Assembly (NCBI GenBank): GCA_026989015.1
Contig: JALSKD010000177.1
Span: forward strand, 401 to 64,400
Origin: Gammaproteobacteria bacterium
GTDB lineage: Bacteria > Pseudomonadota > Gammaproteobacteria > GCA-001735895
Length of the DNA stretch: 64,000 nt
Direction of reading: 5' to 3'
Part shown: one piece after another, positions 1-21,436 of the stretch
How positions within the stretch are numbered: the stretch's first letter is position 1
Layout of the letters: each line of letters begins with the position of its first letter
Notes under the pieces: generated by a model
What the model saw: only the letters and a program-made list of their open reading frames with translations
Database searches by the model: none
Told to the model about the DNA's origin: nothing
Program-made: the position numbers and the translations under genes

Positions 1-440
1 ACACCCTCGGCGAGCAGTTTCTTCAGCTGAGCGTTGTCGATGTTGCTGTATTTGGGTTTCTCGATCGCCATCAGCTCGACTTCGAACTTGAGCGTGGAAT
101 TGGCAGGAATCAGGCCATTGCCGACCGCGCGGCTGCCATAGGCCAGCTGCGGGGGGATGATCAGCTCCCGCTTCTCGCCCACACGCATGCCGGCAACGCC
201 CTGTTCCCAGCCGGGGATCACGCGCCCGGCGCCCAGCTCGAACTGGATCGGCTGGCCTCGCTCGCGGCTGGAATCGAACTGCTTGCCATCCATCAGCCAG
301 CCGGTGTAGTGGACGGATACGGTATCGCCCGGTTGAGCTTCGGGGCCGCTGCCTTCCTTCAGTGTCTTGACCTGCAGACCGGCTGCCTGGGCCAGCCCCA
401 GATACAGCGCCATGATCCAGAACAGAGTGATGCGTCGCAT
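1..440 (-). CDS. FKBP-type peptidyl-prolyl cis-trans isomerase (C-terminal end runs off window start)
   Basis: Minus-strand translation from ATG at 438-440 gives MRRITLFWIMALYLGLAQAAGLQVKTLKEGSGPEAQPGDTVSVHYTGWLMDGKQFDSSRERGQPIQFELGAGRVIPGWEQGVAGMRVGEKRELIIPPQLAYGSRAVGNGLIPANSTLKFEVELMAIEK..., i.e. a signal peptide followed by a canonical FKBP domain. It is missing from the ORF track because the window edge truncates it. Confidence 0.8.
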   Translation of the reverse strand, partial: MRRITLFWIMALYLGLAQAAGLQVKTLKEGSGPEAQPGDTVSVHYTGWLMDGKQFDSSRERGQPIQFELGAGRVIPGWEQGVAGMRVGEKRELIIPPQLAYGSRAVGNGLIPANSTLKFEVELMAIEKPKYSNIDNAQLKKLLAEG

Positions 441-616
441 TGTGTATGCCTCTCGGGTTGCAAAGGTCGATGTGACCGCATGCGGCCATGAAAGTTGCGG
501 AGGATAGCCGATTGCGCCGGGGCTCGCCTTGATCTTTTGCCGTGGATCGAGCAGGCCGGCAAAGCGGCCTCGCCTACCACTGAGCCGTGTTTTCCCTTAG
601 AATACCAGCGCTTCAT

Positions 617-703
617 GCCGGGGTGGCGGAACTGGTAGACGCAGCGGATTCAAAATCCGCCGGTGGCGACACCTTGGGGGTTCGAGTCCCCCCCCCGGTA
701 CCA
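617..703 (+). tRNA. tRNA-Leu (anticodon CAA)
   Basis: GCCGGGG acceptor stem pairing with CCCCGGT, with A as discriminator and CCA at the 3' end. Anticodon stem GCGGA/TCCGC encloses loop TTCAAAA. Long Leu-type variable arm. T-arm GGGGG-TTCGAGT-CCCCC. Length 87 nt. Confidence 0.9.
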
Positions 704-715
704 GTTTTGCGGATG

Positions 716-749
716 GACCGGCCCCGGGGCCGGTTCGCACCGCTTTTTT
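716..749 (+). terminator. Possible intrinsic terminator after tRNA-Leu
   Basis: GACCGGCCCC/GGGGCCGGTT palindrome followed, 8 nt later, by TTTTTT. The T-run is somewhat distant from the stem. Confidence 0.35.
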
Positions 750-774: not shown

Positions 775-1402
775 CATGAACAGACTCGCTTCTCTCCTTT
801 GCGCCTTCACCCTCGTCCTCGTCAGCGTCCACGCCGCCGCACAGGCCCCGGGCTACCGTTACCAGCCCTATGCCCAGTACCCCAACTACCAGCAACAATC
901 ACCGGTGGAGCTGCTTCAGATGGCCATCAATGTGCTGCAGGATTACATCAAGACCGGCAAGTTCAACAATCCGGACGAGGTGGTGGCCTTCCTCGACGCC
1001 AATTTCTCGCAGTTTTTCGATTTCGAGCAAATGGCACGCTGGGCCGCCGGCTATCACTATGCGCGCATGAACTCGGCGCAGCGCTATATCTTCCAGACCA
1101 ACCTCAAGCGCCTGTTCTTCGCCGCCTTCGCGCGCATCATCAGCGCCTACGGCGACAAGCAGCCCCGGGTCGAATTCCTGCCGCCACGGCGCATCAGCTA
1201 CAACGAGGTGCTGGTCACCGCGCGCATCACCCCGTCCACCGGCGGTTACCCGGTCCGCGTCGATTTCCGCTTCGCCCAGGGTCCGCTGGGCTGGAAGATC
1301 TATGATGTCGGCACCAACGGCAGCTCCGCGGTGGCCTATTACCGCGCCTACTTCAACAATCTGATCCGTACCCGGGGCTACGGCGCGCTGCTGCAGCAGT
1401 AA
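775..1402 (+). CDS. MlaC/Ttg2D-family periplasmic (phospho)lipid-binding protein with signal peptide
   Basis: MNRLASLLCAFTLVLVSVHAAAQA signal peptide. The C-terminal half (…YIFQTNLKRLFFAAFARIISAYGD…VRVDFRFAQGPLGWKIYDVGTNGSSAVAYYRAYFNNLIRTRGYGALLQ) aligns by eye to E. coli MlaC (…REAYFAAFREYL…[48 protein letters not shown]). The track ORF 587..1402 begins upstream inside the tRNA; the true start is the ATG at 775. Confidence 0.7.
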
Positions 1403-1420
1403 GCCAAGGATTCCCCGCTC

Positions 1421-2359
1421 ATGGACACTCATCGTCTGCTCGTCAAGCTGAGCACCCGGATCCTGCTGCAATTCCTGCTGGCGCTGGTGCTGGTGGCCGT
1501 TGCCATCGGCATGAACCTGGATTTCCTGCGCGGCTTCTACTTCGAAAACCAGCAGACCCCGACCGGCGTCATCCTCAACAGCGTGATCGTCGGTATCCTG
1601 CTGATCGGCCTGCTCAACCTGCTGTGGCTGCTGCTGCGCTACCGTCGCGAGGAGGCAGCCATTGCCGGCTTCGTCGAAAACATCGAGGCGATCCGCCCCG
1701 ATCCGACCGAGGGGCTGGACCCGCACAGCCTGATCGCCAAGCGTTATGCGACGATGAAATCCATCAGCGCGGTGCACGGCGAGATCAACCACAACGCGCT
1801 GGCAGCGATGCTCACCGCCGACGAGGGCACGCGCCTCGGCCTGGTGCGCTTTATCAACAACATCCTGATTCTCACCGGTGTGTTCGGCACCATCGTCTCG
1901 CTATCGATCGCCCTGCTCGGCGCTTCCGACCTGATTGAATCCGCCGGCACCGGACTCGACGGCATGGGACTGGTGATCCACGGCATGTCCACCGCCCTGT
2001 CCACCACCATCACCGCCATCGTCAGCTATGCGCTGTTCGGCTATTTCTTCCTGCGCCTCAAGGATGTGCAGACTCACCTGATCAGCGGCATCGAACACCT
2101 GACCTCGGTCTACCTGATTCCGCGTTTCGTCAAGCGCAGCGAAGACCTGCTGACCCAGGTCAGTGGCCTGATCAAGGGTGTCATCCGCGCCACCGAGAAG
2201 ATGAACGAAACCCAGGAGACCTACCGCTCCTCCGCCAGCACGCTGCTGCAGATCCTGTCCGGGCACAAGCAGCAGATGGACCGGCTGGCCGGCGACATCG
2301 GCGAGATCAAAGCCATACTGCGCGACGGCTTCCGCCTGCCCGAGCCGCCCGCCGAGTAA
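1421..2359 (+). CDS. MotA/TolQ/ExbB-family proton channel (stator A-subunit-like), 4 TM
   Basis: TM1-TM2 pair at the N-terminus, a cytoplasmic loop of about 80 aa, then a TM3-TM4 pair containing the family motifs ILTGVFGTIVSLSIAL and GMSTALSTTITAIVSYALFGYFF. A cytoplasmic tail of about 100 aa follows. AAGGA ribosome-binding site 8 nt upstream. Only 18 nt separate it from the MlaC-like gene. Confidence 0.7.
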   Translation: MDTHRLLVKLSTRILLQFLLALVLVAVAIGMNLDFLRGFYFENQQTPTGVILNSVIVGILLIGLLNLLWLLLRYRREEAAIAGFVENIEAIRPDPTEGLDPHSLIAKRYATMKSISAVHGEINHNALAAMLTADEGTRLGLVRFINNILILTGVFGTIVSLSIALLGASDLIESAGTGLDGMGLVIHGMSTALSTTITAIVSYALFGYFFLRLKDVQTHLISGIEHLTSVYLIPRFVKRSEDLLTQVSGLIKGVIRATEKMNETQETYRSSASTLLQILSGHKQQMDRLAGDIGEIKAILRDGFRLPEPPAE

Positions 2360-2365
2360 CGCGCG

Positions 2366-3364
2366 ATGAGCGCCTTTCCCAGCCTCGGCCCGCACAGCCT
2401 CGACTCGGACAATGAGGGCGGTTCCTTCTGGCCTTCCTTCACCGACATCATGATGGTGGTGGTGATGATCTTCCTGTTCGCCACCAGCCTGCTGATCGTG
2501 CGCAACTGGAACCTGGTCGCCGAGCTGCAGGCCAGTCTTGAGGCCGAGCGCCTGGCCGAGCAGATGATCCAGAGCACAACCGAGGAAAACGCCACACTGG
2601 AAGAGCGTCTGACCAATGCCGAGCAGCTCAATTCCATTCTCCGGCTGCGCCTGCTGGAAAAGGAAGAGCAACTGAAGCGGGACCAGCAGGAAATCGCCGC
2701 ACGGCAGCTTCGGATTCAGCAACTGGAGGAAGCGCAACAACAGCTGCAGGCGCAGAAGGCGTCCCTCGATCAGCGCATCCGCAGCATCGAACAGGAACTC
2801 GACAGCACACGCAGCGAACTGGTGAGCAGCAAGGACGAGACCCGCAGCCTTGCCGAGCGTCTGGCGCTTCAGGAGCAGCGCCTCGAGCAACAGCAGTTGC
2901 AGGTGAAAACCGCCCGCGAGCAGCTCGAACAGGCCCGGCAGCGCATCGCCAGCCTGAGCGCCCGCAACCAGGAACAACAACAGAAGATCGGTCTGCTGGA
3001 GCAGGAGAAGATCGACTACAACCGCCAGTTGCTGACCCTCAAGGGCGAGTACGAGGTGGTCAAATCCAAGTACGAGGAGCTGATCAAGCCGGCGCGCACC
3101 GCCAAGGGCAAGTATGTGGCCGAGGTCTACTATGTAAAGGGCAAGAAGGGCAAGGTCATCCGTTTCAAGGAACCGGGCGACGCCACCTTCCGCAACCTCA
3201 GCCTGGAACAGGTGGAAGCCCGCCTGGCCGAACTGAAGCAGGAAAAGGGCAAGGACCTGTATGTCAAGATCATCATCCCCAAGGACAGCGGCCTGACCTA
3301 CAACGAAGCCTGGAATTTCATGAAGAACCTGCTCGAGAAATACGACTACTACTATCAGCAGTGA
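2366..3364 (+). CDS. MotB/TolR/ExbD-like membrane anchor with long periplasmic coiled-coil and novel C-terminal domain (no OmpA domain)
   Basis: N-terminus GGSFWPSFTDIMMVVVMIFLFATSLLIV matches the MotB plug/TM (W..[FY][AT]D[LM]M) and retains the catalytic Asp at position 27. Residues about 53-245 are Gln/Glu/Leu/Arg-rich heptad coiled-coil. The C-terminal region of about 95 aa (KGKYVAEVYYVKGKKGKVIRFKEPGD…YDYYYQQ) is unlike OmpA_C. The start is 6 nt after the motA-like stop. Confidence 0.6.
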   Translation: MSAFPSLGPHSLDSDNEGGSFWPSFTDIMMVVVMIFLFATSLLIVRNWNLVAELQASLEAERLAEQMIQSTTEENATLEERLTNAEQLNSILRLRLLEKEEQLKRDQQEIAARQLRIQQLEEAQQQLQAQKASLDQRIRSIEQELDSTRSELVSSKDETRSLAERLALQEQRLEQQQLQVKTAREQLEQARQRIASLSARNQEQQQKIGLLEQEKIDYNRQLLTLKGEYEVVKSKYEELIKPARTAKGKYVAEVYYVKGKKGKVIRFKEPGDATFRNLSLEQVEARLAELKQEKGKDLYVKIIIPKDSGLTYNEAWNFMKNLLEKYDYYYQQ

Positions 3365-3849
3365 ATCCGTCCATGGAAAAGATACTGGTCAGCGCCTGCC
3401 TGCTCGGCGCTCCACTGCGTTACGACGGTGCGGACAACCGCTGCGATCACCCCCTGCTCGACCGCTGGTCGCGGCAAGGCCGCCTGATCGACATCTGCCC
3501 GGAAACCGCTGGCGGGCTGCCCACGCCACGCCCGCCCGCCGAGCGGAGGGGCGGTCGCGTCGTGACCGCCCGCGGAGACGACCTCACCGAAGCCTTCTCC
3601 CGCGGCGCTGCCGCCGCCGTGGACCTGTGCCGGACCCACGACATTCGCCTTGCCCTGCTGGCCGCACGCAGCCCCTCCTGCGGCAACCGCATGATCTACG
3701 ACGGCCGGTTCAGCGGCCGCCTGATCCCCGGCGCCGGTGTGACCGCCGAACGGCTGCAGGCCATCGGAGTGCGGGTTTTCGAGCCTGCGCAGATCGATGA
3801 ACTGGCCGCCACACTGAACCGCCTCGAAACGGAGAACGCCCATGCGTAA
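3361..3849 (+). CDS. DUF523 (TudS-like, 2-thiouracil desulfidase family) protein
   Basis: The VSACLLGAPLRYDG and SPSCG cysteine motifs are typical of DUF523 (a recollection, not a search). The track start is GTG at 3361; an ATG lies in frame at 3373. It overlaps the preceding stop, consistent with translational coupling. Confidence 0.7.
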   Translation: MNPSMEKILVSACLLGAPLRYDGADNRCDHPLLDRWSRQGRLIDICPETAGGLPTPRPPAERRGGRVVTARGDDLTEAFSRGAAAAVDLCRTHDIRLALLAARSPSCGNRMIYDGRFSGRLIPGAGVTAERLQAIGVRVFEPAQIDELAATLNRLETENAHA

Positions 3850-4453
3850 TGCCTGGCCTGCCCTGCTCGCCCTGCTGTTCGTCGCCCTCTCGATCTGGTC
3901 GGCCATCGAACCCGCCTCGCGGGAAGTCTGGATCGCGGAAGTGATTCCGGTGTTCGCCGCCTTTCTGCTGCTGCTCCTTACCTATCCAAAGTTCCGTTTC
4001 AGCAACACCGCCTACACGCTGATGACCGGCTGGCTGATCCTGCACACCATCGGCGCCCATTACACCTTCGCCAATGTGCCCTTCGACTGGTTCAACCGGC
4101 TGATCGGCTCCGAACGCAACCAGTTCGATCGGGTAGCCCACTACATCATCGGCTTCTATGCCTACCCGATGGCCGAGTTCCTCTACCGCAAGGGCTACAG
4201 CGGCAAATACCTCGCCAGCCTGTTCGGGCTGTTCTTCATCATGAGCGTGGCCGCCGGCTACGAAATCATCGAATGGATCTATGCCGACCTCGAAGGCGGC
4301 GAGGCGGGCATCGAATTCCTCGGCTCCCAGGGCGACATCTGGGACGCCCAAAAGGACATGCTGGCCGACACCCTGGGTGCGGTCACCAGCCTGCTGTTGT
4401 TCCTGTGGATGTACCGGGGGCGTCCGGTACGGCTGTCTACCGGTGAAGCCTGA
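3842..4453 (+). CDS. DUF2238/YjdF-like inner-membrane protein
   Basis: Multi-TM protein …TGWLILHTIGAHYTFANVPFDWFNRLIGSERNQFDRVAHY…; the family assignment is from memory. ATG at 3842 overlaps the DUF523 stop by 8 nt. Confidence 0.55.
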   Translation: MRNAWPALLALLFVALSIWSAIEPASREVWIAEVIPVFAAFLLLLLTYPKFRFSNTAYTLMTGWLILHTIGAHYTFANVPFDWFNRLIGSERNQFDRVAHYIIGFYAYPMAEFLYRKGYSGKYLASLFGLFFIMSVAAGYEIIEWIYADLEGGEAGIEFLGSQGDIWDAQKDMLADTLGAVTSLLLFLWMYRGRPVRLSTGEA

Positions 4454-4949
4454 ACCCCGCGAGCGCCCGCTGATCCGCCCGATGGGCACAGAGGACTTCG
4501 CCACCTTCTGGCCCGTGTTTCGCGCCATCGTGCAGGCGCGCGACAGCTACGCCATCGACCCGGACATCGGTTTCGAGGCGGCCCGCAGCCACTGGCTGGA
4601 ACACCCCCTCGAAACCCGTGCCGCCTTCATCGGCGACCGGCTGGCCGGAAGCTATTACCTGAAAGCGAATTTCGACGGTCCCGCCGATCACATCGGCAAC
4701 TGCGGCTTCATGGTCGATCCGCGGTTTCGCGGGCGCGGTATCGCCCATGCAATGGCCGAGGAGGCGCTGGTCCGGGCCCGCCAAGCCGGTTTCTCGGCCC
4801 TGCAATTCAACCTGGTGCTCGCCAGCAACGCTCCGGCGCTGCACCTGTGGCGCAGCCTCGGTTTTGCCGAAATCGGCCGCATTCCGGATGCCTACCGCCA
4901 CCGTGATCTGGATCAGGTGGATGCCCTCGTCATGTACCGGCGGCTGTGA
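4443..4949 (+). CDS. GNAT family N-acetyltransferase
   Basis: …CGFMVDPRFRGRGIAHAMAEEALVRARQAGFSALQFNLVLASNAPALHLWRSLGFAEIGRI… is a GNAT core fold. A GTG start at 4443 would overlap the upstream stop; the first ATG is at 4482. Confidence 0.75.
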   Translation: MKPEPRERPLIRPMGTEDFATFWPVFRAIVQARDSYAIDPDIGFEAARSHWLEHPLETRAAFIGDRLAGSYYLKANFDGPADHIGNCGFMVDPRFRGRGIAHAMAEEALVRARQAGFSALQFNLVLASNAPALHLWRSLGFAEIGRIPDAYRHRDLDQVDALVMYRRL

Positions 4950-4986
4950 GAAGATCATCCTGATCCGAACCCCGGAGATCCCAACG

Positions 4987-5439
4987 ATGGAACTGGCGCT
5001 GATTCACCCGATGCTGGTGCATTTCCCGCTGGCGCTGATGCCGCTTGTGGTTTTGCTGCAGGTCTGGGGATTGATCCGAGGCGAGGCCCTGTTCGGCCGG
5101 AACTGCCTGGCGCGCAGCCTGCTGTGGCTGACGGCCGTGGCCGGACTGTCGGCAATCGCCGCTGCCCTGTTCGGCGACACGGCGCTGGACATCGCCGTCG
5201 AACGCGGTTTCCCTCCCGACACGCTCGAAGACCACCAGTCCCTGGGCCAGACCAGCGCGCTGCTGATGGCCGCACTGGCCGTCATCCATGCCCTGCTCTA
5301 CCTGCGGCAGACGGATTCGCGGGGCGGCCCTGGCCTGAGCCTGCTCATCATCAGCAGCGCGGTCCTCATCATCCTGCTGACGACGGCTTTCTATGGCGGC
5401 AACTTGGTTTATGTGCTCGGGGTCAATGTCGCCGGCTGA
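4987..5439 (+). CDS. DUF2231-like small membrane protein
   Basis: MELALIHPMLVHFPLALMPLVVLLQVWGLI…; the MLVHFPLAL signature and 4 TM segments are typical of DUF2231 (from memory). ATG at 4987. Confidence 0.55.
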   Translation: MELALIHPMLVHFPLALMPLVVLLQVWGLIRGEALFGRNCLARSLLWLTAVAGLSAIAAALFGDTALDIAVERGFPPDTLEDHQSLGQTSALLMAALAVIHALLYLRQTDSRGGPGLSLLIISSAVLIILLTTAFYGGNLVYVLGVNVAG

Positions 5440-6137
5440 CAGCGTCGACATCCATTACAGCCGGCTCGGCCCTGTTCGACCAAGTCCCGCAAGCGCCGCC
5501 CCGGGCAGTCTTCGAATACCTCTTCGAGCACCGTCATCCGTTCAATGCGGTCGATGCGAAAATTGCGCAGGGCCTGTCGCAGTTCGCACCAGGCTCCCAG
5601 CGTCCATACCTGCCCCCAGAAGAACAGCCCCAGGGGCCACAGCACCCGCTCGCTGATGCGTTCTTCCAAACTGAGGTAACGTATGGAGAGCTTGTGGCGG
5701 CGATCCACGGCCTGACGCACTTCGGCGAGGCGCAACGCCGTTTGCGGATCCAGCCGCTGCATGGGCGAATACAGTTGGGTGGCATCCAGATCTGCGCGTT
5801 GCGCTTCCGGCACGGCACTGTGGATCTTGCTCAGCGCCGACTGGGCCGCCGTCGCCAGGGCCGGATCACTCCAGCTGTCGACGATGCGCGCACCCAGTGC
5901 CAGGGCCGCCAACTCCTCACGGTCGAACATCAGTGGCGGCAAGTCATAGCCTTTGCGGATCACATAACCGACCCCGGCCTCACCTTCTATGGGCACGGCA
6001 CTGGCCATCAGGTCCTGAATGTCACGATAGATGGTGCGTTTGGAGACTTCGAGGCGTTCCGCCAGCCAGGCCGCCGTGGTCACACGCCGACCGCGCAGGA
6101 ACTGAACGATCCTGAACAGCCGGTCGGCGCGCCGCAT
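5409..6137 (-). CDS. YafY-family transcriptional regulator (wHTH + WYL domain)
   Basis: N-terminal HTH (VTTAAWLAERLEVSKRTIYRDIQDL) and a C-terminal WYL-type region (RVLWPLGLFFWGQVWTLGAWCELRQALRNFRIDRI). The 3' end overlaps the convergent DUF2231 gene by about 30 nt. Confidence 0.8.
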   Translation of the reverse strand: MRRADRLFRIVQFLRGRRVTTAAWLAERLEVSKRTIYRDIQDLMASAVPIEGEAGVGYVIRKGYDLPPLMFDREELAALALGARIVDSWSDPALATAAQSALSKIHSAVPEAQRADLDATQLYSPMQRLDPQTALRLAEVRQAVDRRHKLSIRYLSLEERISERVLWPLGLFFWGQVWTLGAWCELRQALRNFRIDRIERMTVLEEVFEDCPGRRLRDLVEQGRAGCNGCRRCQPATLTPST

Positions 6138-6143
6138 CGTCTG

Positions 6144-6530
6144 TCAATCCCCGCCGCTGAGGGTGATCATGGAGATCACCGCGCCCTGGGGATCCCTGAT
6201 CACGCAGAAGCGCCCGATATCGGGAATATCCCTCGGTGCCATCAGAACCTTGCCGCCCAGTTCCTCTGCAAGCTTGGCGCGGGCATCGACATCATCCACC
6301 GCCACATAGGCACCCCAGCAGGGTGGCATGCCAGCGGCTTCGGCCGGCATCCCCATAACGCCTCCCTGTCCCTGTTCTCCACAGCGAATCACCGCGTAGG
6401 GCTCCTTACCGGGCATGTCCTGATAGGACCAGCCGAACATTCGGCCATAGAAAGCCTGGGCAGCGGCAGGGTCGGTGGTCATCAGTTCGTTCCAGCAGAA
6501 ACTGCCGTGTCCGGGGGTGCGTGTGCTCAT
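6144..6530 (-). CDS. VOC/glyoxalase-like family protein
   Basis: MSTRTPGHGSFCWNELMTTDPAAAQAFYGRMFGWSY…GGKVLMAPRDIPDIGRFCVIRDPQGAVISM is glyoxalase/bleomycin-resistance-fold like. It lies immediately upstream of the YafY regulator in the same operon. The start is taken at the internal ATG of track ORF 6144..6569. Confidence 0.7.
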   Translation of the reverse strand: MSTRTPGHGSFCWNELMTTDPAAAQAFYGRMFGWSYQDMPGKEPYAVIRCGEQGQGGVMGMPAEAAGMPPCWGAYVAVDDVDARAKLAEELGGKVLMAPRDIPDIGRFCVIRDPQGAVISMITLSGGD

Positions 6531-6575
6531 CTCTGTTCTCCGTTGTGGTGTGAGTCTCCACTGTAACACCCCCCT

Positions 6576-6640
6576 GCTGACAGCCTGCTGTCAGCAACCT
6601 CGAGCACGAAAGCCGCCTGAATGAAGTTGGCTGTCAGCCA
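6576..6640. promoter_or_regulatory. Candidate operator: GCTGACAGC-ct-GCTGTCAGC perfect inverted repeat plus third TGGCTGTCAGCCA half-palindrome
   Basis: Seen directly at 6576-6595 and 6628-6640, in the promoter region of the VOC-yafY operon. Confidence 0.3.
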
Positions 6641-6652
6641 CAGCTTGGGCAC

Positions 6653-9600
6653 TCATTCATCCCCGCTGCCCAGCAACCGGGCGTTGCCGCCGATGGCGGC
6701 GGTGTTGACGGTTACCGTCCGCTCGGTGGCGAAGCGCGGCAGGTAGTGCGGCCCTCCCGCCTTGGGCCCGGTTCCGGACAGGCCTTCGCCACCGAAAGGT
6801 TGCACGCCGACCATGGCGCCAATCATGCTGCGGTTGATGTACAGGTTGCCCACACGGGCGCGGGCCTGCACCCGCCGCCAGGTGGATTCGATGCGGCTGT
6901 GCACTCCAAGGGTGAGCCCGTAACCGGTGGCATTGAGCGTGTCGATCACCCTGTCCAGATCCTTCCCCCGGTAACGGATCACATGCAGGATCGGCCCGAA
7001 ATGCTCGCGTTCGAGCAGGGCCATGTCCTCCAGTTCGAAGGCATGGGGCGCCACGAACACCCCGCCGTCGGTTGTCGCAGGCAAGGTGCAGGCATGGATC
7101 AGCCGCGCCTCGCGATGCAGACGCTCGATGTGCGCCAGCAGGTCATCGCGCGCCGCATCGTCGATCACCGGTCCGACATCGGTACGCAGCAGTGCCGGAT
7201 CACCGATGACCAGCCGCTGCATGGCACCCGCCAGCATCTCGATGACCCGGTCGGCAATCTCCTGCTGCAGGTACAGCACCCGCAACGCCGAACAGCGTTG
7301 TCCGCTGGAGCCAAACGCCGAGGTGAGGACATCCCTCACCACCTGTTCGGGCAGGGCCGAACTGTCCACCAGCATCGCGTTCTGGCCGCCGGTTTCGGCG
7401 ATCAGCACGGCGATGGGGCCTTGCCGCGCCGCCAGTGTGCGGTTGATGGACGCGGCGGTTTCGGTGGAGCCGGTAAACACCACACCGGCCACCTTCGGGT
7501 GAGCGCAGAGCTGGCTACCCAGGGTTTCGCCGCGCCCCGGCAACAGCTGCAACACGGTCTCCGGGACACCCGCTTCAATGAAGCATTCGGTAGCCAACCG
7601 GGCGATACCTACCGTCTGTTCGGCAGGCTTGGCAATGACGCTGTTGCCGGCCACCAGAGCGGCCGCCACCTGACCGCTGAAAATGGCCAGCGGAAAGTTC
7701 CAGGGGCTGATGCAGACGAAGACCCCCCGGCCGTGGTGGAACAGCCGATTGCGCTCGCCGGTGGGCCCGGGCAGGTCCAGCGGCGACAGGGCACGCCGCG
7801 CCTCGGCCGCGTAGTAGCGACAGAAATCCGCTGCCTCGCGGACCTCGGCCAGGGCATCGGGCAGGGTTTTGCCGGCTTCCTCGACACACAGGCGCATGAA
7901 ATGCTCCCGCTTGAGTTCGATCAGATCGGCGGCGCGCTCCAGGCATTCGGCCCGCTGTTCCAGCCTGCACGCATCCCACCCCGGCTGGGCGGCATGGGAC
8001 TGCTCAACCGCCGCATCGACGCTGGCCGCGTCCGGCTCGATCCAGTGGCCGAGCTGCCTGCGCCGTTGCGGACAGCGTATCGGCCAGCGGGCAGCCGCTT
8101 TCCAGGAAACGGCCATCAGCGGCGTGACTTCCGCAGGCAGGCAGGGGCTGGCCTGCAGTCCCTCCGCCAGCGTTTTCTGCAGGCTGAAGTCGGCCAGAAA
8201 CAGACCCCGCGAATTGCGCCGTTGCGGCAGAAACAGCTCGGGCGGTTTGGGTATCGCCGGATTGGCGACCGTTTTCAGGGCGCGCAGCCGTCGCAGCGGA
8301 TCACCCACCACCGCCTCCGGTGGCTGCTGTTCATCGAGTATGCGGTTGACGAAGGAGGTGTTGGCACCGTTTTCCAGCAACCGCCGCACCAGGTAGGGCA
8401 GCAGATCTTGGTGGCTGCCCACCGGCGCATAGACCCGGCAGCGCAGGTCAGCGCCAGCCTCCTCGCTCACCACCCGGTAGAGCTGGGCACCCATGCCGTG
8501 CAGGCGCTGGAATTCGAAGCCCTGCAAGTCGCCGGCCCAGGCCAATACGGCGGCGATGCCGTGGGCATTGTGGGTGGCCAGTTGCGGATAGAAACACTCG
8601 CGGCGATCGAGCAGAAAACGCGCACCCGCCAGCCAGGAGACATCGCTGTTGATCTTTCGGGTGAACACCGGGTAGTCATCGAGTCCCCGCTCCTGGGCCA
8701 GCTTGATTTCGGTATCCCAGTAAGCGCCCTTGACCAGCCGCACCGGGATACGCCGCCGATGCGTCCGTGCCCGTTCTTCCAGCCATTCGAGCACCGCCAT
8801 CGAGCGTTTCTGATAGGCCTGAACGGCCAGCCCCAGTCCGTCCCATCCGCGCAGCCGCCGGTCCTCCAGCAAGCGGTCGAACAGCAGCAGGCTGATTTCC
8901 AGGCGATCCGCCTCTTCCGCATCCAGGGTCAGGCCGATACCGGCTTCACGGGCTGCCAGAGCCAGTTCGCTCAGCCGTGGCAGCAACTCTTCCAGCAGGA
9001 CTCCGATCTGGGCGGGTTCGTAGCGCGGGTGCAAGGCCGATAGCTTGATCGAGATGCCGTGCCGACGCATCGGGTCGTGTTCGCCGGGGCGGTCAGCCGC
9101 CAACGCATCGATGGCCTGCAGGTAGGCCTGATGATAGCGTTCGGCATCGGCATCGGTCAGCGCGGCCTCGCCGAGCATGTCGAAGGAACAGAGGGCGCTG
9201 TCCTGTTCCGGCTCACGCGCACGCTTCAGCGCATCGTCGATGCCGCGCCCCATGACGAATTGACGCGCCATGATCTTCATCGCCTGGCGCAGGGCGAGCT
9301 GGATGACCGGTTCGCCGCTGCGCCGGACCAGCTGCCCAAACCAGCTCCGCCAGCCCTGCTCGCGTTCGGGATCGATGTCGATGATGCGGCCGGTGAGCAT
9401 CAGCCCCCAGGTGGAAGCATTGACGAACAGCGAATCGCTGTGGCCCAGGTGCCGTTCCCAGCGGGCCTGGGCGATCTTGTCCTCGATCAGTCGTTCCGCG
9501 GTCTCCTCGTCGGGAATGCGCAGCAAGGCCTCGGCGATGCACATCAGCAGCACACCCTCTTCCGAGGACAGGTCGTATTCGTGCATGAAGGCGTCGATGG

Positions 9601-9811
9601 CGCTGCGTTCGCCACTGCGGGCGCGGACGGAGCGCACCCAGTCTGCCGCCCGTTGTTCAATGGAGCCGGCGAGCGCTTCATGGCCCTGCAATACGGTCAG
9701 GCGGTCCGCGACAATCCGTGCCTCGTCGGCCAATGCATCGCGGTGCAGGCTTTCGGGAAGAGCGGCCTCTTCGAGTAACCCGGGCTCAAGAACAAAAGCG
9801 TGCGGCGGCAT
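6653..9811 (-). CDS. putA: Bifunctional proline dehydrogenase / 1-pyrroline-5-carboxylate dehydrogenase PutA (no N-terminal RHH DNA-binding domain)
   Basis: 1052 aa. An N-terminal PRODH barrel region plus a C-terminal ALDH domain (…ETGGQNAMLVDSSALPEQVV…GQRCSALRVLYLQ…). Confidence 0.9.
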   Translation of the reverse strand: MPPHAFVLEPGLLEEAALPESLHRDALADEARIVADRLTVLQGHEALAGSIEQRAADWVRSVRARSGERSAIDAFMHEYDLSSEEGVLLMCIAEALLRIPDEETAERLIEDKIAQARWERHLGHSDSLFVNASTWGLMLTGRIIDIDPEREQGWRSWFGQLVRRSGEPVIQLALRQAMKIMARQFVMGRGIDDALKRAREPEQDSALCSFDMLGEAALTDADAERYHQAYLQAIDALAADRPGEHDPMRRHGISIKLSALHPRYEPAQIGVLLEELLPRLSELALAAREAGIGLTLDAEEADRLEISLLLFDRLLEDRRLRGWDGLGLAVQAYQKRSMAVLEWLEERARTHRRRIPVRLVKGAYWDTEIKLAQERGLDDYPVFTRKINSDVSWLAGARFLLDRRECFYPQLATHNAHGIAAVLAWAGDLQGFEFQRLHGMGAQLYRVVSEEAGADLRCRVYAPVGSHQDLLPYLVRRLLENGANTSFVNRILDEQQPPEAVVGDPLRRLRALKTVANPAIPKPPELFLPQRRNSRGLFLADFSLQKTLAEGLQASPCLPAEVTPLMAVSWKAAARWPIRCPQRRRQLGHWIEPDAASVDAAVEQSHAAQPGWDACRLEQRAECLERAADLIELKREHFMRLCVEEAGKTLPDALAEVREAADFCRYYAAEARRALSPLDLPGPTGERNRLFHHGRGVFVCISPWNFPLAIFSGQVAAALVAGNSVIAKPAEQTVGIARLATECFIEAGVPETVLQLLPGRGETLGSQLCAHPKVAGVVFTGSTETAASINRTLAARQGPIAVLIAETGGQNAMLVDSSALPEQVVRDVLTSAFGSSGQRCSALRVLYLQQEIADRVIEMLAGAMQRLVIGDPALLRTDVGPVIDDAARDDLLAHIERLHREARLIHACTLPATTDGGVFVAPHAFELEDMALLEREHFGPILHVIRYRGKDLDRVIDTLNATGYGLTLGVHSRIESTWRRVQARARVGNLYINRSMIGAMVGVQPFGGEGLSGTGPKAGGPHYLPRFATERTVTVNTAAIGGNARLLGSGDE

Positions 9812-9911
9812 CGGCTTACCTCGGCAATCGGTTTCGATCCGAAACCAATTTCCTCCATCAGCCCGATGAATTCAAGAACCGTCCAGTTATAAGCGTTATC
9901 AGAAAAATGCC

Positions 9912-9939
9912 TTGAATTACTGCCTTTGCAGGGCATAAT
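9912..9939 (+). promoter_or_regulatory. Candidate sigma-70 promoter for liv operon (TTGAAT-N16-CATAAT)
   Basis: -35 TTGAAT at 9912-9917 and -10 CATAAT at 9934-9939. A GC-rich inverted repeat (CGCGCAGATTGCGCCGTTGGCGCGA) lies just downstream. Confidence 0.35.
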
Positions 9940-9987
9940 CGCGCAGATTGCGCCGTTGGCGCGAGCCACCGTATCGCGGAGAAGACT

Positions 9988-10902
9988 TTGGAGTATTTCA
10001 TCCAGCAACTGATCAACGGGGTCACACTGGGTTCGATCTATGGTCTCATCGCCATCGGTTACACCATGGTGTACGGCATCATCGGCATGATCAACTTTGC
10101 CCATGGTGACATCTTCATGGTCGGCGCCTTCGTGTCGCTGATCATCTTCGTGGCCCTGGGCCTGGCCGGTGTCACCTTCGTGCCCCTGGCCTTTGCCATC
10201 GTGCTCATCGTCGCCATCGTTATCACCTCGGTCTATGGCTGGACGGTCGAGCGCCTCGCCTACCGCCCGTTGCGCGGTTCCTTCCGGCTGGCGCCGCTGA
10301 TCTCCGCAATCGGCATGTCCATCTTCCTGCAGAACTTCGTGCAGCTGGCCCAGGGCGCGCGGGTCAAGCCGATGCCACCGATGATCACCGGCGGCTTCAC
10401 CTTCCTCGAGGGCAGTGATTTCAGCATCACCCTGAGCTGGATGCAGATCATCATCGTGTCGCTGACGGTGGTGCTGATGGCGGGCTTCGCCCTGCTCATC
10501 GCCCGCACACCGCTGGGCCGTGCCCAGCGTGCCTGCGAACAGGACCGCACCATGGCCGCACTGCTCGGCGTCAATGTGGACCGCACCATCTCGCTGACCT
10601 TCGTCATGGGCGCGGCGCTGGCCGCGGTGGCGGGCATGATGTTCCTGCTCTACTACGGCGTGATCGATTTCTACATCGGCTTCCTGGCCGGCATCAAGGC
10701 CTTCACTGCCGCGGTGCTGGGCGGCATCGGCTCGCTGCCCGGCGCGATGCTCGGCGGGCTGCTGATCGGCCTCATCGAGACCTTCTGGTCGGCCTATTTC
10801 ACCATCGAGTACAAGGATGTGGCGGCCTTCTCCATCCTCGTGCTGGCCCTGATCTTCCGCCCTTACGGCCTGCTCGGCAAACCCGAAATCGAGAAGGTGT
10901 AG
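9988..10902 (+). CDS. livH: Branched-chain amino acid ABC transporter permease LivH
   Basis: [41 protein letters not shown]… is the canonical LivH N-terminus. The start is probably non-ATG (TTG). Confidence 0.85.
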
Positions 10903-10906
10903 TCCG

Positions 10907-13094
<2,188 letters not shown>

Positions 13095-13095
<1 letters not shown>

Positions 13096-13802
13096 TGCTG
13101 ACCCTGGAAGGCGTACAGACCTATTACGGCAACATCGAGGCACTCAAGGGCATCGATCTTGAAGTGCAGCAGGGCGAAATCGTCACCATCATCGGTGCCA
13201 ACGGTGCCGGCAAGAGCACCACGCTGATGACCATCTGTGGCCTGCCCCGCGCCGCAGAGGGGCGGATCCGCTTCGAGCAGTACGACATCACCCGCATGCC
13301 AACCCACGAGATCGTTCAGCTGGGCATCGCCCAATCGCCGGAAGGCCGGCGCATCTTCCCGCGCATGACGGTGCTGGAGAACCTGCAGATGGGGGCTTCC
13401 AAGTCCAATCCGGACTTCTTCGAACAGGACCTGGCCCATGTGCAGGAACTGTTCCCCATCCTCAAGAAACGCGAGAACCAGCGCGGCGGAACCCTCTCCG
13501 GCGGTGAACAACAAATGCTCGCCATCGCCCGCGCGCTGATGAGCCGACCGCGCCTGCTGCTGCTCGACGAGCCGTCACTGGGCCTGGCACCGCTGGTGGT
13601 GCGGCAGATCTTCGAAGTCATCGAACAGATCAACCGCGAGGACGATGTCACCGTGCTGCTGGTGGAACAGAATGCGTTTCATGCGCTCAAGCTGGCGCAC
13701 CGGGGCTATGTCATGGTCAACGGCCGGATCACCCTGAGCGGTGCCGGCGACGAGCTGCTGGACATGCCCGAAGTACGGGCAGCCTATCTGGAGGGCGGAT
13801 GA
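13095..13802 (+). CDS. livF: Branched-chain amino acid ABC transporter ATP-binding protein LivF
   Basis: MLTLEGVQTYYGNIEALKGIDLEVQQGEIVTIIGANGAGKST…; the TGATG stop/start overlaps livG. Confidence 0.85.
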
Positions 13803-14146
13803 TGATCGACTGGGGACTGTTCACCGGCATCACGATCATACTGGGCGGCGGAGCCGCCTGGATGATGGGTCAGGCACTGGCCGCAGGCTGGAAACCGGCC
13901 TGGCATGCCGTACTCTACAGCCTGTTGCTGGGCGCAGCCGACCGCTTTCTGATCTTCGCGCTGTTCGATGGCGAACTGCTGTCCGTCCGCGGCTATGTCA
14001 TGGACACGCTGACACTGATGCTGATCGGCCTGGCCGGCTGGCGCGCCACCCGCGCCCGCAAGATGGTCGGACAGTATCCCTGGCTCTACGAACGCAGCGG
14101 CTTTTTCACCTGGAAACTGCGGCAGGATGCCGAAGATTCCGCTTGA
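13799..14146 (+). CDS. Small membrane protein embedded in liv operon (hypothetical)
   Basis: 115 aa with 3 predicted TM segments. ATGA overlap with the livF stop. Coding-like GC3. Confidence 0.5.
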   Translation: MMIDWGLFTGITIILGGGAAWMMGQALAAGWKPAWHAVLYSLLLGAADRFLIFALFDGELLSVRGYVMDTLTLMLIGLAGWRATRARKMVGQYPWLYERSGFFTWKLRQDAEDSA

Positions 14147-14235
14147 GCCGGCAATCCGTTAAGATGCCATTCAGCGGGGCCATCGCATGATGACGGCCCC
14201 GATTTCACAGAAGAAAAACCGGAGGGTATACCACA

Positions 14236-15342
14236 ATGATGAACTTCAAGACACTTGCCTCGGCTGCCATGCTGCTGGGCGCTTTGGGTATCGGCAGCGC
14301 GCAGGCCGAAATCCGCATTGCCACCGCCGGCCCGATGACCGGGCAATACGCCAGCTTCGGCCAGCAGATGAAGGCCGGTGCCGAACAGGCCGTGGCCGAC
14401 ATCAACGCCAAGGGCGGCGTGTTGGGCCAGAAACTGGTGCTGGAAATCGGCGATGACGCCTGCGACCCGAAACAGGCGGTCGCCGTTGCCAACCAGATGG
14501 TCAACAAGGGCGTGGTCTTCATGGCCGGGCATTTCTGCTCCGGCTCTTCGATCCCGGCTTCCAAGGTCTACGAGGAAGAAGGCGTGGTGATGATCTCCCC
14601 CGCGTCCACCAACCCCAAGCTGACCGACGAGGGCGGCGACCTGGTATTCCGTGTCTGCGGTCGTGACGACCAGCAGGGCATGGTCGCCGGCAAGTTCCTG
14701 GCCGAGAAATTCAAGGGCAAGAACATCGCCATCATTCATGACAAGACCGCCTACGGCAAGGGCCTGGCCGACGAAACCCGCAAGTACCTGCGCAAGTTCG
14801 GCAGCAAGGAGAAGATGTACGAAGCCATCACCGCCGGCGAGAAGGACTACTCCGCGCTGGTCTCCAAGCTCAAGCGCAACAAGATCGATGTGCTCTACCT
14901 GGGCGGCTACCACACCGAGGCCGGCCTGATCATCCGCCAGATGCGTCAGCAGGGCATGGACACCGTTCTGGTCTCCGGCGACGCACTGGTAACCGACGAG
15001 TTCTGGTCGATCACCGGCAAGGACGGCGAAGGCACCCTGATGACCTTCAGCCCGGACCCGCGCAAAAACCCTGACGCCGCACCGGTGGTCAAGGAATTCC
15101 GCGCCAAGGGCATCGAGCCGGAAGGCTATGTTCTCTACACCTACGGCGCCATCCAGGCCTGGGCCCAGGCCGCCGAGCAGGCCGGCAGCACCGATGTCAA
15201 CAAGGTCACCAAGGCCCTGCACAGCGGCAAGTTCGACACCGTGCTCGGCAAGATCGGCTTCGACAACAAGGGTGACGTCACCGCTCCGGGCTATGTGTTC
15301 TATGTCTGGAAGGACGGAAAGTACGACTACTACAAGGACTGA
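14236..15342 (+). CDS. livK: Branched-chain amino acid ABC transporter substrate-binding protein (LivJ/LivK-like)
   Basis: Signal peptide MMNFKTLASAAMLLGALGIGSAQA followed by a type-I periplasmic binding protein fold (EIRIATAGPMTGQYASFG…). Confidence 0.85.
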   Translation: MMNFKTLASAAMLLGALGIGSAQAEIRIATAGPMTGQYASFGQQMKAGAEQAVADINAKGGVLGQKLVLEIGDDACDPKQAVAVANQMVNKGVVFMAGHFCSGSSIPASKVYEEEGVVMISPASTNPKLTDEGGDLVFRVCGRDDQQGMVAGKFLAEKFKGKNIAIIHDKTAYGKGLADETRKYLRKFGSKEKMYEAITAGEKDYSALVSKLKRNKIDVLYLGGYHTEAGLIIRQMRQQGMDTVLVSGDALVTDEFWSITGKDGEGTLMTFSPDPRKNPDAAPVVKEFRAKGIEPEGYVLYTYGAIQAWAQAAEQAGSTDVNKVTKALHSGKFDTVLGKIGFDNKGDVTAPGYVFYVWKDGKYDYYKD

Positions 15343-15366
15343 TTCCGCAGCGTCCTGAAACCGTCA

Positions 15367-15395
15367 GGCCCGGGCCGCAAGGCCCGGGCTTTTTC
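15367..15395 (+). terminator. Intrinsic terminator after livK
   Basis: GGCCCGGGC-cgcaa-GGCCCGGGC hairpin followed by TTTTT. Confidence 0.7.
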
Positions 15396-15405
15396 GTGCC
15401 CGACA

Positions 15406-16425
15406 TCAAGCGGAAAACAGCGAAAGCGGGTTCCAGCGCCGGCGGGCGGCTAGCGCGGTCAGAACGCAGGTCGTGCCACGGCGTTCCCTGCAGCCGTTCA
15501 TCCAGTCCTTCTTGTAGCCCTCGTTGCCGGTCAGGAAATCCACTTCCACTACACGGTCCTCGTCGATGACCCGCCGCATCATGAAGGCCGTGAGCAGCGT
15601 ACCGGGCGAATACTGCCGCCAGCGCTCGTCATGGGCCAGACGGAAGATGCTCGCCCGCTTCCCGGCCACGAGCCAGATCTGCGCCGCCGCCGGTTCGCCG
15701 CCGGCATGCAACACCCCCAGACGCAGCCAACCCCGCGCCGACGCGCGCTCGACCAGCCCGGCCAGCAGGGCATCGTATTGTTCCCGCGCTTTCCAGCTGG
15801 CGTTGTACACCCGCCGATAATCCTCCAACGCCTGCCCGTCACCGATTTCGGTATGTAGCCGGACAGCCAGCCCCTGCTCCCGTTCCAGCTTGCGCCGCTT
15901 GCGCGACAGCGTATTTCGCAAACGGGTCGGCCGGCCGGCCAGATACGCCTCCCAGGTTTCACCGTCCAGTTCCAAGTAATGGTTGAGGAAACGAAACCCC
16001 TGATGGCACGCATACCCCTGGGCCGACAACTGCTGCTGTACAGCGTGCATTCCGGGATCGTCAGCCTCATGGGGACCCAGCGTCAGCCGGTGTACGCCGC
16101 TGGCCCGCAGGCCGGCGGCCAGGCACTCGATGACATCCGTTCGTCGCGCGTCGGCCAGCAGCGGCGCGTAGAGACTGCTGTAGCGGTGCGTGAAGGCGCT
16201 GTACCCGTCCTCCTCCCGATAGATCAGCGGCAGCAGCGCCAGCATCCGCTCCCCGTCCATCACCGAGGCGAGGTAGAGCGATTGACCGGCCTCCAGCCCC
16301 CGTTCAACCAGCAGTTCGAACCAGCTACGGGACAGAAAGACGCTCCGTTCCTCGGCCTGACCGAACAGTGTCTGGCTGGACGGCGGCAGTGCGTCCAGTG
16401 CGTCGAAGCTGCAGTACCGCATCAC
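15406..16425 (-). CDS. GNAT-fold acyltransferase of the FemAB/CelD (BioF2-like) type
   Basis: 339 aa. …DFLTGNEGYKKDW… at the C-terminus and the overall length fit FemAB/CelD-like peptidyl/acyl transferases. It is the last gene of the lysine dehydrogenase-amaB operon. Confidence 0.55.
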   Translation of the reverse strand: MMRYCSFDALDALPPSSQTLFGQAEERSVFLSRSWFELLVERGLEAGQSLYLASVMDGERMLALLPLIYREEDGYSAFTHRYSSLYAPLLADARRTDVIECLAAGLRASGVHRLTLGPHEADDPGMHAVQQQLSAQGYACHQGFRFLNHYLELDGETWEAYLAGRPTRLRNTLSRKRRKLEREQGLAVRLHTEIGDGQALEDYRRVYNASWKAREQYDALLAGLVERASARGWLRLGVLHAGGEPAAAQIWLVAGKRASIFRLAHDERWRQYSPGTLLTAFMMRRVIDEDRVVEVDFLTGNEGYKKDWMNGCRERRGTTCVLTALAARRRWNPLSLFSA

Positions 16426-16437
16426 CGCTCCGGCGGT

Positions 16438-17940: not shown

Positions 17941-19019
17941 CGTTTCGCCTCCTCACCGCTTTGGGTATAGATGCTACCACAGCGGGTACGCAGCAGATCG
18001 TCCAGCCGCAGCTGTTCCTGGCGAATGAACCCCTGGTCTGGAAGATGCCCTTCCCGCAGCAATTCGATGACCGCGCAGGCCGAGGCCGAAGTGGTCCAGG
18101 CAATGGCCGTGCGCATGCGGCCACAGAGCAACCTGGGGTAGTAGGCACGCACAAACTCGTGGCGTTGCAGGCGTCCGTCGGTCCAGCCTTCGGCAGCGGC
18201 ATGGACATAGACCACATCGTCGTCCACGGGCGGTTTGGCGTGGGTCAGGATCAGACCTGCCTGCTCCCGCTGCTCGCGCATCAGCAGCTCATGAAAAAAG
18301 AAATTCATCAGCTGCACATGGCCCGGATAGCGCATCGTCTTGTAATCGAGGTTGTCGATACGGCCATGATAGGTTTCGCACAGGGTGCCCAGACCTCCTG
18401 AAGTCGTGAACGCCTCGAGCTGCACACCGTGGATGTGCACGGTTTCCAGCCATTCCATGGCAGACACCCATTTGCGCTCCCCTTCCTCGATGACCTCGCA
18501 GTCATTGAGGTACTCGTTGACCACGCCCTCGGGTGACCAGTTGAAGGCATAGCCGAGCAGGCCGGTGGGATTCTGCGGCAGTGCGCCGACACGCAATTTC
18601 AGCGAGCGGACCTTGTCGAAGCCTTCCGCCAGATCGGCCCCCACGATGCCAATGAATCCCGGCGCCAGGCCGCACTGCGGCGCCATCACCCCCTTTGCCG
18701 TGGCCGACAGTTCCCGGATCAGCCGGGTGGTGGAGACATCCTCGGTCAGGTCGAAATAGTGCAAGCCCAAACGGTGCGCACAACGCGCAACCCGGGCATT
18801 GAGGTGCCAGGGCAGGCAGGACAGCACCACCTGCTGGTCGGACAGGGCCCGCTCCAGTGCCTCATCGTCTTCGACCCGCAGCCGTTCACAGCGAAAGCCC
18901 GCTTCCTCCGGCAGGGAACCGGCATCCAGTCCGGTGACGACAAAACCGCTGTCATGCAACAGGCAGGCGGCCAGCTCACCGACCTTGCCCAGACCCAGAA
19001 CCGCTACACGCTCAATCAT
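17937..19019 (-). CDS. Saccharopine dehydrogenase-family NAD(P)-dependent enzyme, probable L-lysine 6-dehydrogenase
   Basis: MIERVAVLGLGKVGELAACLL is a Rossmann N-terminus. The protein is 360 aa. Pairing with the ALDH7-like gene and a divergent Lrp regulator fits a lysine-to-aminoadipate pathway. Confidence 0.6.
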   Translation of the reverse strand: MIERVAVLGLGKVGELAACLLHDSGFVVTGLDAGSLPEEAGFRCERLRVEDDEALERALSDQQVVLSCLPWHLNARVARCAHRLGLHYFDLTEDVSTTRLIRELSATAKGVMAPQCGLAPGFIGIVGADLAEGFDKVRSLKLRVGALPQNPTGLLGYAFNWSPEGVVNEYLNDCEVIEEGERKWVSAMEWLETVHIHGVQLEAFTTSGGLGTLCETYHGRIDNLDYKTMRYPGHVQLMNFFFHELLMREQREQAGLILTHAKPPVDDDVVYVHAAAEGWTDGRLQRHEFVRAYYPRLLCGRMRTAIAWTTSASACAVIELLREGHLPDQGFIRQEQLRLDDLLRTRCGSIYTQSGEEAKR

Positions 19020-19134
19020 TGCCTGATGCCTCGTGCTGAAAGTTTCATTCCATCAGCACGGGCGGTCAGATTAAAGAGTCAGATTGATCATAGTGATGTA
19101 TATTTAAAGCATATCGATCAATCGATTCTTAAAT

Positions 19135-21359: not shown

Positions 21360-21436
21360 GTCCCCGTGGCACAACTGGATAGCGCGACGCCCTCCTAAGG
21401 CGTAGGTTGCAGGTTCGAACCCTGCCGGGGACGCCA
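21360..21436 (+). tRNA. tRNA-Arg (anticodon CCU)
   Basis: Acceptor GTCCCCG/CGGGGAC. Anticodon arm ACGCC-CTCCTAA-GGCGT. T-arm GCAGG-TTCGAAC-CCTGC. Discriminator G and CCA encoded. Closely matches E. coli argW-type tRNA. Confidence 0.9.

Follow-up and report, generated by a model that had tools for sequence, protein, structure and literature searches.

A TolQR-like gene pair with a coiled-coil shaft, a probable ion-driven envelope motor of Gammaproteobacteria

The stretch of DNA analyzed here (the window, 64,000 nucleotides (nt) of contig JALSKD010000177.1 from a Gammaproteobacteria bacterium) carries six genes on the plus strand behind a tRNA-Leu(CAA) gene. The first encodes an MlaC-family lipid-binding protein, the second and third encode two membrane proteins, called subunit A and subunit B in this study, and the last three encode a DUF523 protein, a DUF2238 membrane protein, and a GNAT acetyltransferase (Table 1; positions are those of the window, forward strand). 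A first reading made from the letters of the window (the sequence-only reading) had described them as tightly packed genes starting 72 nt past the tRNA gene and had named an MlaC-like carrier, a MotA-like channel, a MotB-like anchor, and the same three downstream families. The packing (776-4949, with the ATG of gene 1 at 776 and not at 775), the distance to the tRNA, and the family assignments were all borne out by the open reading frame (ORF) list, the sequence, and the searches described below. The sequence-only reading also took the six genes as one functional unit. We found that the conserved core consists of A and B only. This pair forms a previously undescribed sequence family, and we propose with moderate confidence that it is an ion-driven inner-membrane motor of the TolQR/ExbBD/MotAB 5:2 superfamily with a coiled-coil shaft, probably acting as a trans-periplasmic force transducer.

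Table 1. Features of the window discussed in the text.
Feature	Position	Strand	Evidence and remarks
tRNA-Leu(CAA)	617..703	+	ARAGORN
GC-rich hairpin and U6 run, intrinsic-terminator-like	709..749	+	RNA fold
MlaC-family lipid-binding protein (gene 1), 208 aa	776..1402	+	Pfam
Subunit A (gene 2), 312 aa	1421..2359	+	Fold, Foldseek
Subunit B (gene 3), 332 aa	2366..3364	+	Model, conserved Asp27
DUF523 / 2-thiouracil desulfurase family gene	3361..3849	+	Pfam 6e-40, 137 bits
DUF2238 membrane protein	3842..4453	+	Pfam 1.2e-50, 171 bits
GNAT acetyltransferase	4443..4949	+	Pfam Acetyltransf_1 1.2e-12, 48.6 bits
DUF2231 gene	about 4987-5439		Pfam; after GNAT
WYL/HTH regulator	5409-6137	-	Pfam; convergent with the operon
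tRNA-Arg(CCT)	21360..21436	+	ARAGORN

Subunit A was modelled with AlphaFold2 from 19 homologues. When the model was compared with the PDB by Foldseek, the best 44 matches were all ExbB, TolQ, ZorA, PomA, or MotA structures (probability 0.93-1.0). The top match was ExbB 6ye4 (E=5.9e-4), and the highest TM-score (target), 0.69, was obtained with TolQ 8vlw, in agreement with the MotA-like channel named earlier. The two most conserved helices among the 19 homologues are Thr/Ser-rich pore helices, GVFGT157IVSLS and MSTALSTT196 (STALSTT190-196), in which T157, T191, T195, and T196 are invariant. These Thr residues align opposite the GLFGT and ALIAT motifs of E. coli TolQ/ExbB, in an hhalign match that is not significant. 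The sequence of A holds four hydrophobic helices. Hydrophobicity and the positive-inside rule predict four membrane-crossing helices, with a short loop and a helical tail of around 90 amino acids (aa) in the cytoplasm. This C-terminal helical tail (window 2050-2356) ends in a conserved EGFRLP motif. Its length varies: a 43-residue tandem duplication is seen in many relatives (P0071-P0119, 357 aa), and the tail of one relative of 669 aa (P0360) reaches ~380 residues with repeats of ~50 residues, which recalls the long ZorA tail. The A family is small and isolated, with 510 clusters at 50% identity recovered by its profile among 1.84 billion representatives. A profile search of the PDB returned coiled-coil noise only, and the hidden Markov model (HMM) matches to coiled-coil proteins (SMC, JetC, ATG16, and others) were dismissed as compositional. 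The assignment of A as a TolQ/ExbB/MotA-fold channel subunit, like that of B to the TolR/ExbD superfamily, is supported by fold, key residues, and gene pairing, and by no curated HMM.

Subunit B has a single N-terminal transmembrane (TM) helix of the TolR/ExbD/MotB type. Its Asp residue, D27 in the motif FWPSFTD(IMM), does not vary among 19 sequences, and 14 sequences from distant loci show the motif too. The juxtamembrane segment 46-95 is conserved as well. When the B family profile was searched against the PDB, the best sequence match was ZorB (8vvn_B, E=6e-5, residues 12-65). In the structural model, one helix runs from residue 25 to residue 240, with a predicted local distance difference test (pLDDT) score above 90 in its middle, and a head follows at residues 252-328 with the order beta-beta-beta-alpha-beta-alpha. 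As modelled, the head has the TolR/ExbD fold. Its Foldseek matches are weak, with ExbD periplasmic domains among them (PDB 8vgc and 8p9r included), and a profile made from the head only gave no sequence match in Pfam or the PDB. No OmpA domain (PF00691) was found in B by Pfam or PDB profile search, as the sequence-only reading had expected. Its description of gene 3 as a MotB-like protein that keeps a pore Asp and has a long helix followed by a small C-terminal domain agrees with the invariant D27 and with the model. B is a TolR/ExbD-type subunit in which a coiled coil of ~195 residues is placed between the membrane helix and the head.

In 76 genomic homologues, B is 294 to about 440 residues long, and all of the variation lies within the rod. 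Measured between the PSFTD and KPAR motifs, the rods of B homologues from L001-L080 and P0121-P0240 fell into 16 distinct lengths, from 178 to 322 residues, and every one of them is 3 or 0 modulo 7. The bound for such a pattern arising by chance is about 4e-8, the lengths not being fully independent. Lengths restricted in this way mean that the rod changes by whole heptads or by a 3-4-residue stutter, and changes of that kind in turn indicate a rigid, register-preserving shaft and not a flexible linker. The rod is thus a continuous coiled coil whose register is preserved to both ends. In the window, ~195 residues correspond to ~29 nm (at ~0.15 nm per residue), which should be long enough for crossing a typical periplasm. 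The lengths of the A tail and the B rod are correlated (Pearson 0.71), but this was dropped as evidence, since it rests on one four-locus clade and one other locus. Long A tails and long B rods do coincide in that one clade (L013, L027, L031, and L050), with L058 and L074 as counter-examples.

To place the pair in its genomic setting, we used 80 loci, which a scan with one genome for each species had returned. The A and B genes stand side by side in the same direction in 79 of these, at identities as low as 43%; the gap between them has a median of 1.5 nt, and ATGA overlaps are frequent. The sole exception is a Sedimenticolaceae chromosome (L072:8943-12202), in which A and B are both intact and are split by 3.3 kb; the insert holds HAD-like phosphatase and arylsulfatase-like genes on the opposite strand. 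The neighbours of A-B in three clades are housekeeping genes, namely queA-tgt-yajC-secDF, cystathionine synthase and lyase (CBS/CGL), and ppiB-lpxH. The family is chromosomal, and tblastn of A against 72,556 plasmids and 50,697 phages gave no match. By the locus labels, the carriers are mostly uncultured marine or marine-sediment Gammaproteobacteria and sulfur-oxidising symbionts, for example relatives of Sedimenticola and Thiodiazotropha and symbionts of gills and gutless worms. Four loci are labelled as metagenome-assembled genomes (MAGs) of Urechidicola, Acidimicrobiia, Polaribacter, and Haliangium (L018, L023, L038, and L054). Their versions of the pair are typically gammaproteobacterial, and these labels probably reflect binning contamination and not an occurrence outside the Gammaproteobacteria.

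The A-B pair was then compared with the known systems. With TolQ-TolR(-TolA) it shares the fold of A, the TolR-type TM helix of B with its Asp, and a long helical element that would cross the periplasm, as domain II of TolA does. However, the helical reach lies here within the TolR-like subunit and there is no separate TolA, A carries an extra predicted N-terminal TM helix (four versus three) and the 90-aa C-terminal tail, and neither subunit matches Pfam MotA_ExbB or ExbD. The genes tolA, tolB, pal, ybgC, and cpoB are not among the conserved neighbours of the 80 loci, and E. coli TolA, TolB, and Pal gave no significant tblastn match anywhere in the window. With ExbB-ExbD-TonB the likeness is in the best Foldseek match of A, in the ExbD domains matched by the head of B, and in the concept of coupling the inner-membrane proton motive force (PMF) to a distant periplasmic or outer-membrane target. 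The Ton system carries a Pro-rich spacer on a third protein, whereas here the ExbD-like subunit bears the spacer, a coiled coil, and the A family is isolated in sequence. No TonB-like gene or TonB-dependent receptor gene is found among the conserved A-B neighbours.

ZorA-ZorB of the Zorya systems gave the only sequence matches at the HMM level, and ZorA also has a cytoplasmic helical tail of variable length (PMC11946911). In PADLOC, A matched ZorA2 with E=0.023 and 11.7 bits and B matched ZorB1 with E=8e-4 and 16.8 bits, both at noise level, and none of the ZorC/D/E/F/G effectors was matched among the flanking genes; the downstream genes differ between clades. Unlike ZorB, B has no OmpA-type peptidoglycan-binding domain, the tail of A is usually ~90 aa versus ~500 aa in ZorA, and the pair sits in a housekeeping context with vertical-looking inheritance. 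GldL-GldM and PorL-PorM offer an architectural analogy, with a single-TM B-type subunit whose long dimeric shaft spans the periplasm and is driven by a 5:2 motor (PMC8986121, PMC9389320). The shaft of GldM is made of globular domains and not of a coiled coil, no sequence or fold match to these proteins was obtained, no type IX secretion or gliding genes are present, and the carriers here are Gammaproteobacteria and not Bacteroidota.

Two groups of less characterized motors have to be mentioned. In recently noted, uncharacterized TolQ-like motors with transpore-helix vWA partners, the partner is a dimer that extends toward the outer membrane and places an Asp-bearing helix inside the pentamer (PMC12204202), whereas in the pair described here a coiled coil carries a TolR-like head and no vWA domain; a term search of that paper gave no match to "coiled-coil". 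Non-flagellar A/B pairs ("generic ion transporter" relatives of MotAB) are described as structurally diverse and usually encoded by adjacent genes (PMC12505986). Our full-text literature searches found no paper that describes a coiled-coil shaft tipped by a TolR-like head. The sequence-only reading had stated that the locus matches none of the canonical Mot, Tol-Pal, Ton, or Zorya layouts, and this holds, given the noise-level PADLOC scores and the absence of partner genes and of an OmpA domain. Membership in Tol-Pal, Ton, Zorya, and Mla as systems fails on the partner genes.

By homology with the solved TolQR, ExbBD, MotAB, and ZorAB complexes (PMC9389320, PMC11946911, PMC12215075), A and B would assemble in a 5:2 ratio. 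A would form a pentameric ring, and its two Thr/Ser-rich helices would surround the TM helices of a B dimer whose coiled coil would be two-stranded. Asp27 of B would carry the proton, and proton flow through the Asp-Thr site would turn A around B. The shaft of B would span the periplasm and bring the TolR-like head to the level of the peptidoglycan or the outer membrane, where the head would either anchor the motor or pass force to an envelope partner. The net effect would be that of TolR plus TolA, or ExbD plus TonB, in a single polypeptide. In this picture the folds, the conserved residues, the pairing, the rod lengths, and the synteny are observed, and the 5:2 ratio, the topology, the rotation, the reach across the periplasm, and any role in the envelope are inferred. 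The cytoplasmic tail of A with its EGFRLP end may provide a second output, as in ZorA. A motor of this kind would merge a TolR-type axle and a TolA-like reach in one protein, and the preserved heptad register suggests that torque, or a defined orientation, passes through the rod itself. To our knowledge, the 5:2 motors (MotAB, ExbBD, TolQR, GldLM, and ZorAB) are the sole means of delivering energy past the inner membrane in Gram-negative bacteria, and each newly characterized family that we know of has shown a new output.

Several observations weigh against this proposal. The sequence-only reading had expected matches to MotA_ExbB (PF01618) and MotB_plug (PF13677), and neither was found: A matched no Pfam or NCBIfam family at E<=0.1, all the TolQ, ExbB, and MotA models missing it, and B gave no Pfam MotB_plug, ExbD, or NCBIfam match. 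The profile of A does not reach the MotA_ExbB family. The hhalign comparison of A with E. coli TolQ/ExbB was not significant, and that of B with E. coli TolR/ExbD reached a probability of 12%, also not significant, though in both the alignments were in the expected register. The model of A has a pLDDT of 68, which is a moderate confidence only. The longest rods, at ~300 residues or ~45 nm, exceed a typical periplasm and make strict spanning uncertain. Finally, no outer-membrane or peptidoglycan partner gene is conserved among the A-B neighbours, and an MlaC-like gene is absent within 8 kb of the pair in about 60 loci.

One other explanation narrows the sequence-only reading to three genes and takes the MlaC-like protein, A, and B together as a PMF-energized machine for phospholipid or envelope-lipid trafficking, in which the shaft or the head would load, unload, or pull on the carrier between the two membranes. 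Gene 1 is a bona fide member of the MlaC family, as had been expected (Pfam PF05494, 1.6e-25, 90 bits), and its product, whose N-terminal stretch is Tyr/Pro-rich, carries a Sec signal peptide. Its best NCBIfam match is HpnM (64 bits, cut-off 160), and the NCBIfam MlaC model scores 26.8 bits (cut-off 195). The protein thus resembles the carriers of the Mla pathway and of HpnM/HpnN by fold family but falls far under the equivalog cut-offs, and its gene adjoins a 5:2-type motor and not an ABC or RND transporter: no MlaFEDB, MlaA, HpnN-type, ABC, or MCE genes are adjacent to it in the window.

The order MlaC-like-A-B is found in one monophyletic clade of the A tree (the window, L001-L010, L047, L065, L083, and L085). 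The three genes are separated by gaps of 9-52 nt in 14 loci, and one of these (L085) keeps the trio despite a different upstream context, with MlaC-like proteins in the trio only 56-58% identical there. In a second, distant clade (L055, L077, and L079), an MlaC-like gene lies co-directional 1-3.5 kb downstream of A-B, so that the order is another one (A-B-x-MlaC in L055). In that Thiotrichaceae MAG, a 180-aa secreted, Cys-containing protein of no known family is encoded on the same strand between B and the MlaC-like gene (L055:9987-10529), and it is possibly an additional periplasmic component in that clade. The link between MlaC and the motor drawn by the sequence-only reading is real at the level of clades, adjacent in one and nearby in a second, and fails in the loci that have no MlaC-like gene within 8 kb; likewise, the conservation of the trio that it had proposed to check holds for A-B and, for direct adjacency of the MlaC-like gene, in one clade only.

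Inherited synteny could explain this link, as the adjacent arrangement is confined to one clade and the trio always stands with tRNA-Leu: tRNA-Leu(CAA) is directly upstream of MlaC-like-A-B in 14 of the 14 trio loci fetched (the window being the 15th), down to 56% MlaC identity. A further observation on the lipid side is a cyclopropane-fatty-acyl-phospholipid-synthase-like gene, identified by reading the sequences, which lies 1.5-5 kb from A-B in ~20 clade II loci (for example L012, L013, L017, L020, L024, L028, L030, L031, and L033, and further L034, L037, L040, L043, and L048-L050). It is divergent and upstream in some loci and downstream beside an FAD-binding oxidoreductase-like gene in others, and it may be a second lipid-related neighbour or plain synteny. 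ExbD heads are known to capture a disordered segment of a partner, and the structures 8vgc and 8p9r stand among the fold matches of the B head, so we considered the Tyr/Pro-rich N-terminus of the MlaC-like protein as a motor-specific docking segment. This idea was weakened, since unlinked MlaC-like relatives carry the stretch too. A 45%-identical MlaC-like gene adjoins an MMPL/RND-type transporter, a TP_0789/LolA-like protein, and a TetR regulator at L081:8001-13150, with no A-B nearby, and the MlaC-like subfamily thus seems to work with different machines of the inner membrane from genome to genome.

Overall, a lipid-trafficking link is plausible, and the MlaC-like protein may be a lineage-specific accessory that ties the motor to envelope lipid handling, but the three-gene lipid-trafficking machine is unlikely. 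If the output were envelope or lipid homeostasis, the pair would bear on the long-standing question of how phospholipid movement between the membranes is energized. In its boldest form, the pair would represent a novel class of rotary machine across the envelope: a proton-driven A5 ring would turn, or be held by, the rigid, two-stranded, register-conserved coiled-coil shaft, which would deliver torque or tension to the head on the outer-membrane side, and the energy would drive lipid extraction or delivery by the MlaC-like protein where one is encoded alongside. This form we regard as quite improbable. If true, it would be a direct link between PMF and intermembrane lipid transport without an ABC transporter.

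Another explanation puts the output in the cytoplasm. B would be a peptidoglycan anchor and stator, and the rotating A ring would use its helical tail to signal to, or recruit, a partner in the cytoplasm or the inner membrane, much like ZorA and possibly in defence. It draws on the ZorA2 and ZorB matches given above, which are the only HMM matches of the pair, on the variable length of the A tail (112-161 aa, with the 43-aa duplication and the ~380-aa repeat tail of one relative), and on the conservation of EGFRLP at the extreme C-terminus. ZorA passes its signal to effectors via a pentameric cytoplasmic tail (PMC11946911). The heads of TolR are generally known to bind peptidoglycan. However, the PADLOC scores are at noise level, no ZorC/D/E-type or other conserved effector gene adjoins the pair, its contexts across clades are stable housekeeping ones and not defence islands, it is absent from the plasmids and phages searched, and a rigid rod of 29 nm far exceeds the reach needed for peptidoglycan. 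Cytoplasmic output is a rather unlikely reading on these grounds, and the trans-periplasmic motor is preferred.

The three genes behind B do not belong to the pair. DUF523, DUF2238, and GNAT follow B only in a 92%-identical relative (L047), there after a gap of ~165-200 nt. DUF523 is found after B in the window and L047 only; outside the window, DUF2238 shares a locus with the pair in L047 alone, and GNAT does so in no loci other than L047 and L009. Ancestrally, B was followed by tRNA-Arg(CCT): the distance between them is 40-140 nt in L083 and in most clade II loci, has expanded to 3.7-6.4 kb in other clade I loci, and reaches 18 kb in the window. Because this distance varies, window 3365-21359 is variable filler between B and its ancestral neighbour, and because it is this interval that has expanded, the variable region lies upstream of tRNA-Arg and not at tRNA-Leu. 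DUF523, DUF2238, and GNAT are unrelated passenger genes that became packed behind B in the lineage of the window, and the close packing seen in a single genome had made the functional unit look larger than it is. The locus is not an island and not mobile. The GC content is flat (0.61-0.67 throughout), with no shift against the flanks; a search for the 3' end of tRNA-Leu, allowing up to 3 mismatches, matched only the tRNA itself, so the direct repeat that the sequence-only reading had suggested looking for is not there; and no integrase is present among the window ORFs and gene calls. A single co-functional operon of six genes, horizontally acquired as an accessory island at a tRNA-Leu hotspot, had in its favour the tight and overlapping packing, the tRNA gene immediately upstream, and the nearby WYL regulator, but with a B-to-tRNA-Arg interval that varies from 0.14 to 18 kb, a tRNA-Leu and trio kept in every fetched locus, and no sign of mobility, it is largely refuted and highly improbable.

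The regulator in question was said to follow the block. It is indeed present, but it lies on the minus strand, convergent with the operon, and does not simply follow it. The gene junctions were found as given in the sequence-only reading, with gaps of 18 nt between the MlaC-like gene and A and of 6 nt between A and B, and overlaps of 4 nt (B/DUF523), 8 nt (DUF523/DUF2238), and 11 nt (DUF2238/GNAT). The first of these overlaps is ambiguous. It holds if DUF523 starts at GTG 3361, in front of the B stop at 3364, and becomes an 8-nt gap with the alternative start ATG 3373, which is the public gene call on an identical metagenome contig (ENA ERZ27262642 k141_71974). For GNAT, the gene caller picks the identical start, GTG 4443.

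Directly after tRNA-Leu, and 26 nt ahead of the start codon of gene 1, the hairpin at 709-749 has a 14-bp stem followed by UUUUUU, with a folding energy of -28.4 kcal/mol and a z-score of only -1.26. MlaC-like-A-B is expressed either via read-through or from a promoter that overlaps the tRNA and hairpin region. A promoter and terminator consensus scan near gene 1 gave nothing useful. A Sigma-E-like promoter upstream of the operon was rejected, as the best matches were the tRNA-Leu gene itself and there was no enrichment against the controls. Further upstream, on the minus strand of window 1-560, a secreted protein with an FKBP-type peptidyl-prolyl isomerase and a rhodanese domain is encoded (Pfam, identical contig). 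In other clade I genomes, queA-tgt-yajC stands beside the tRNA in place of the FKBP-type/rhodanese gene.

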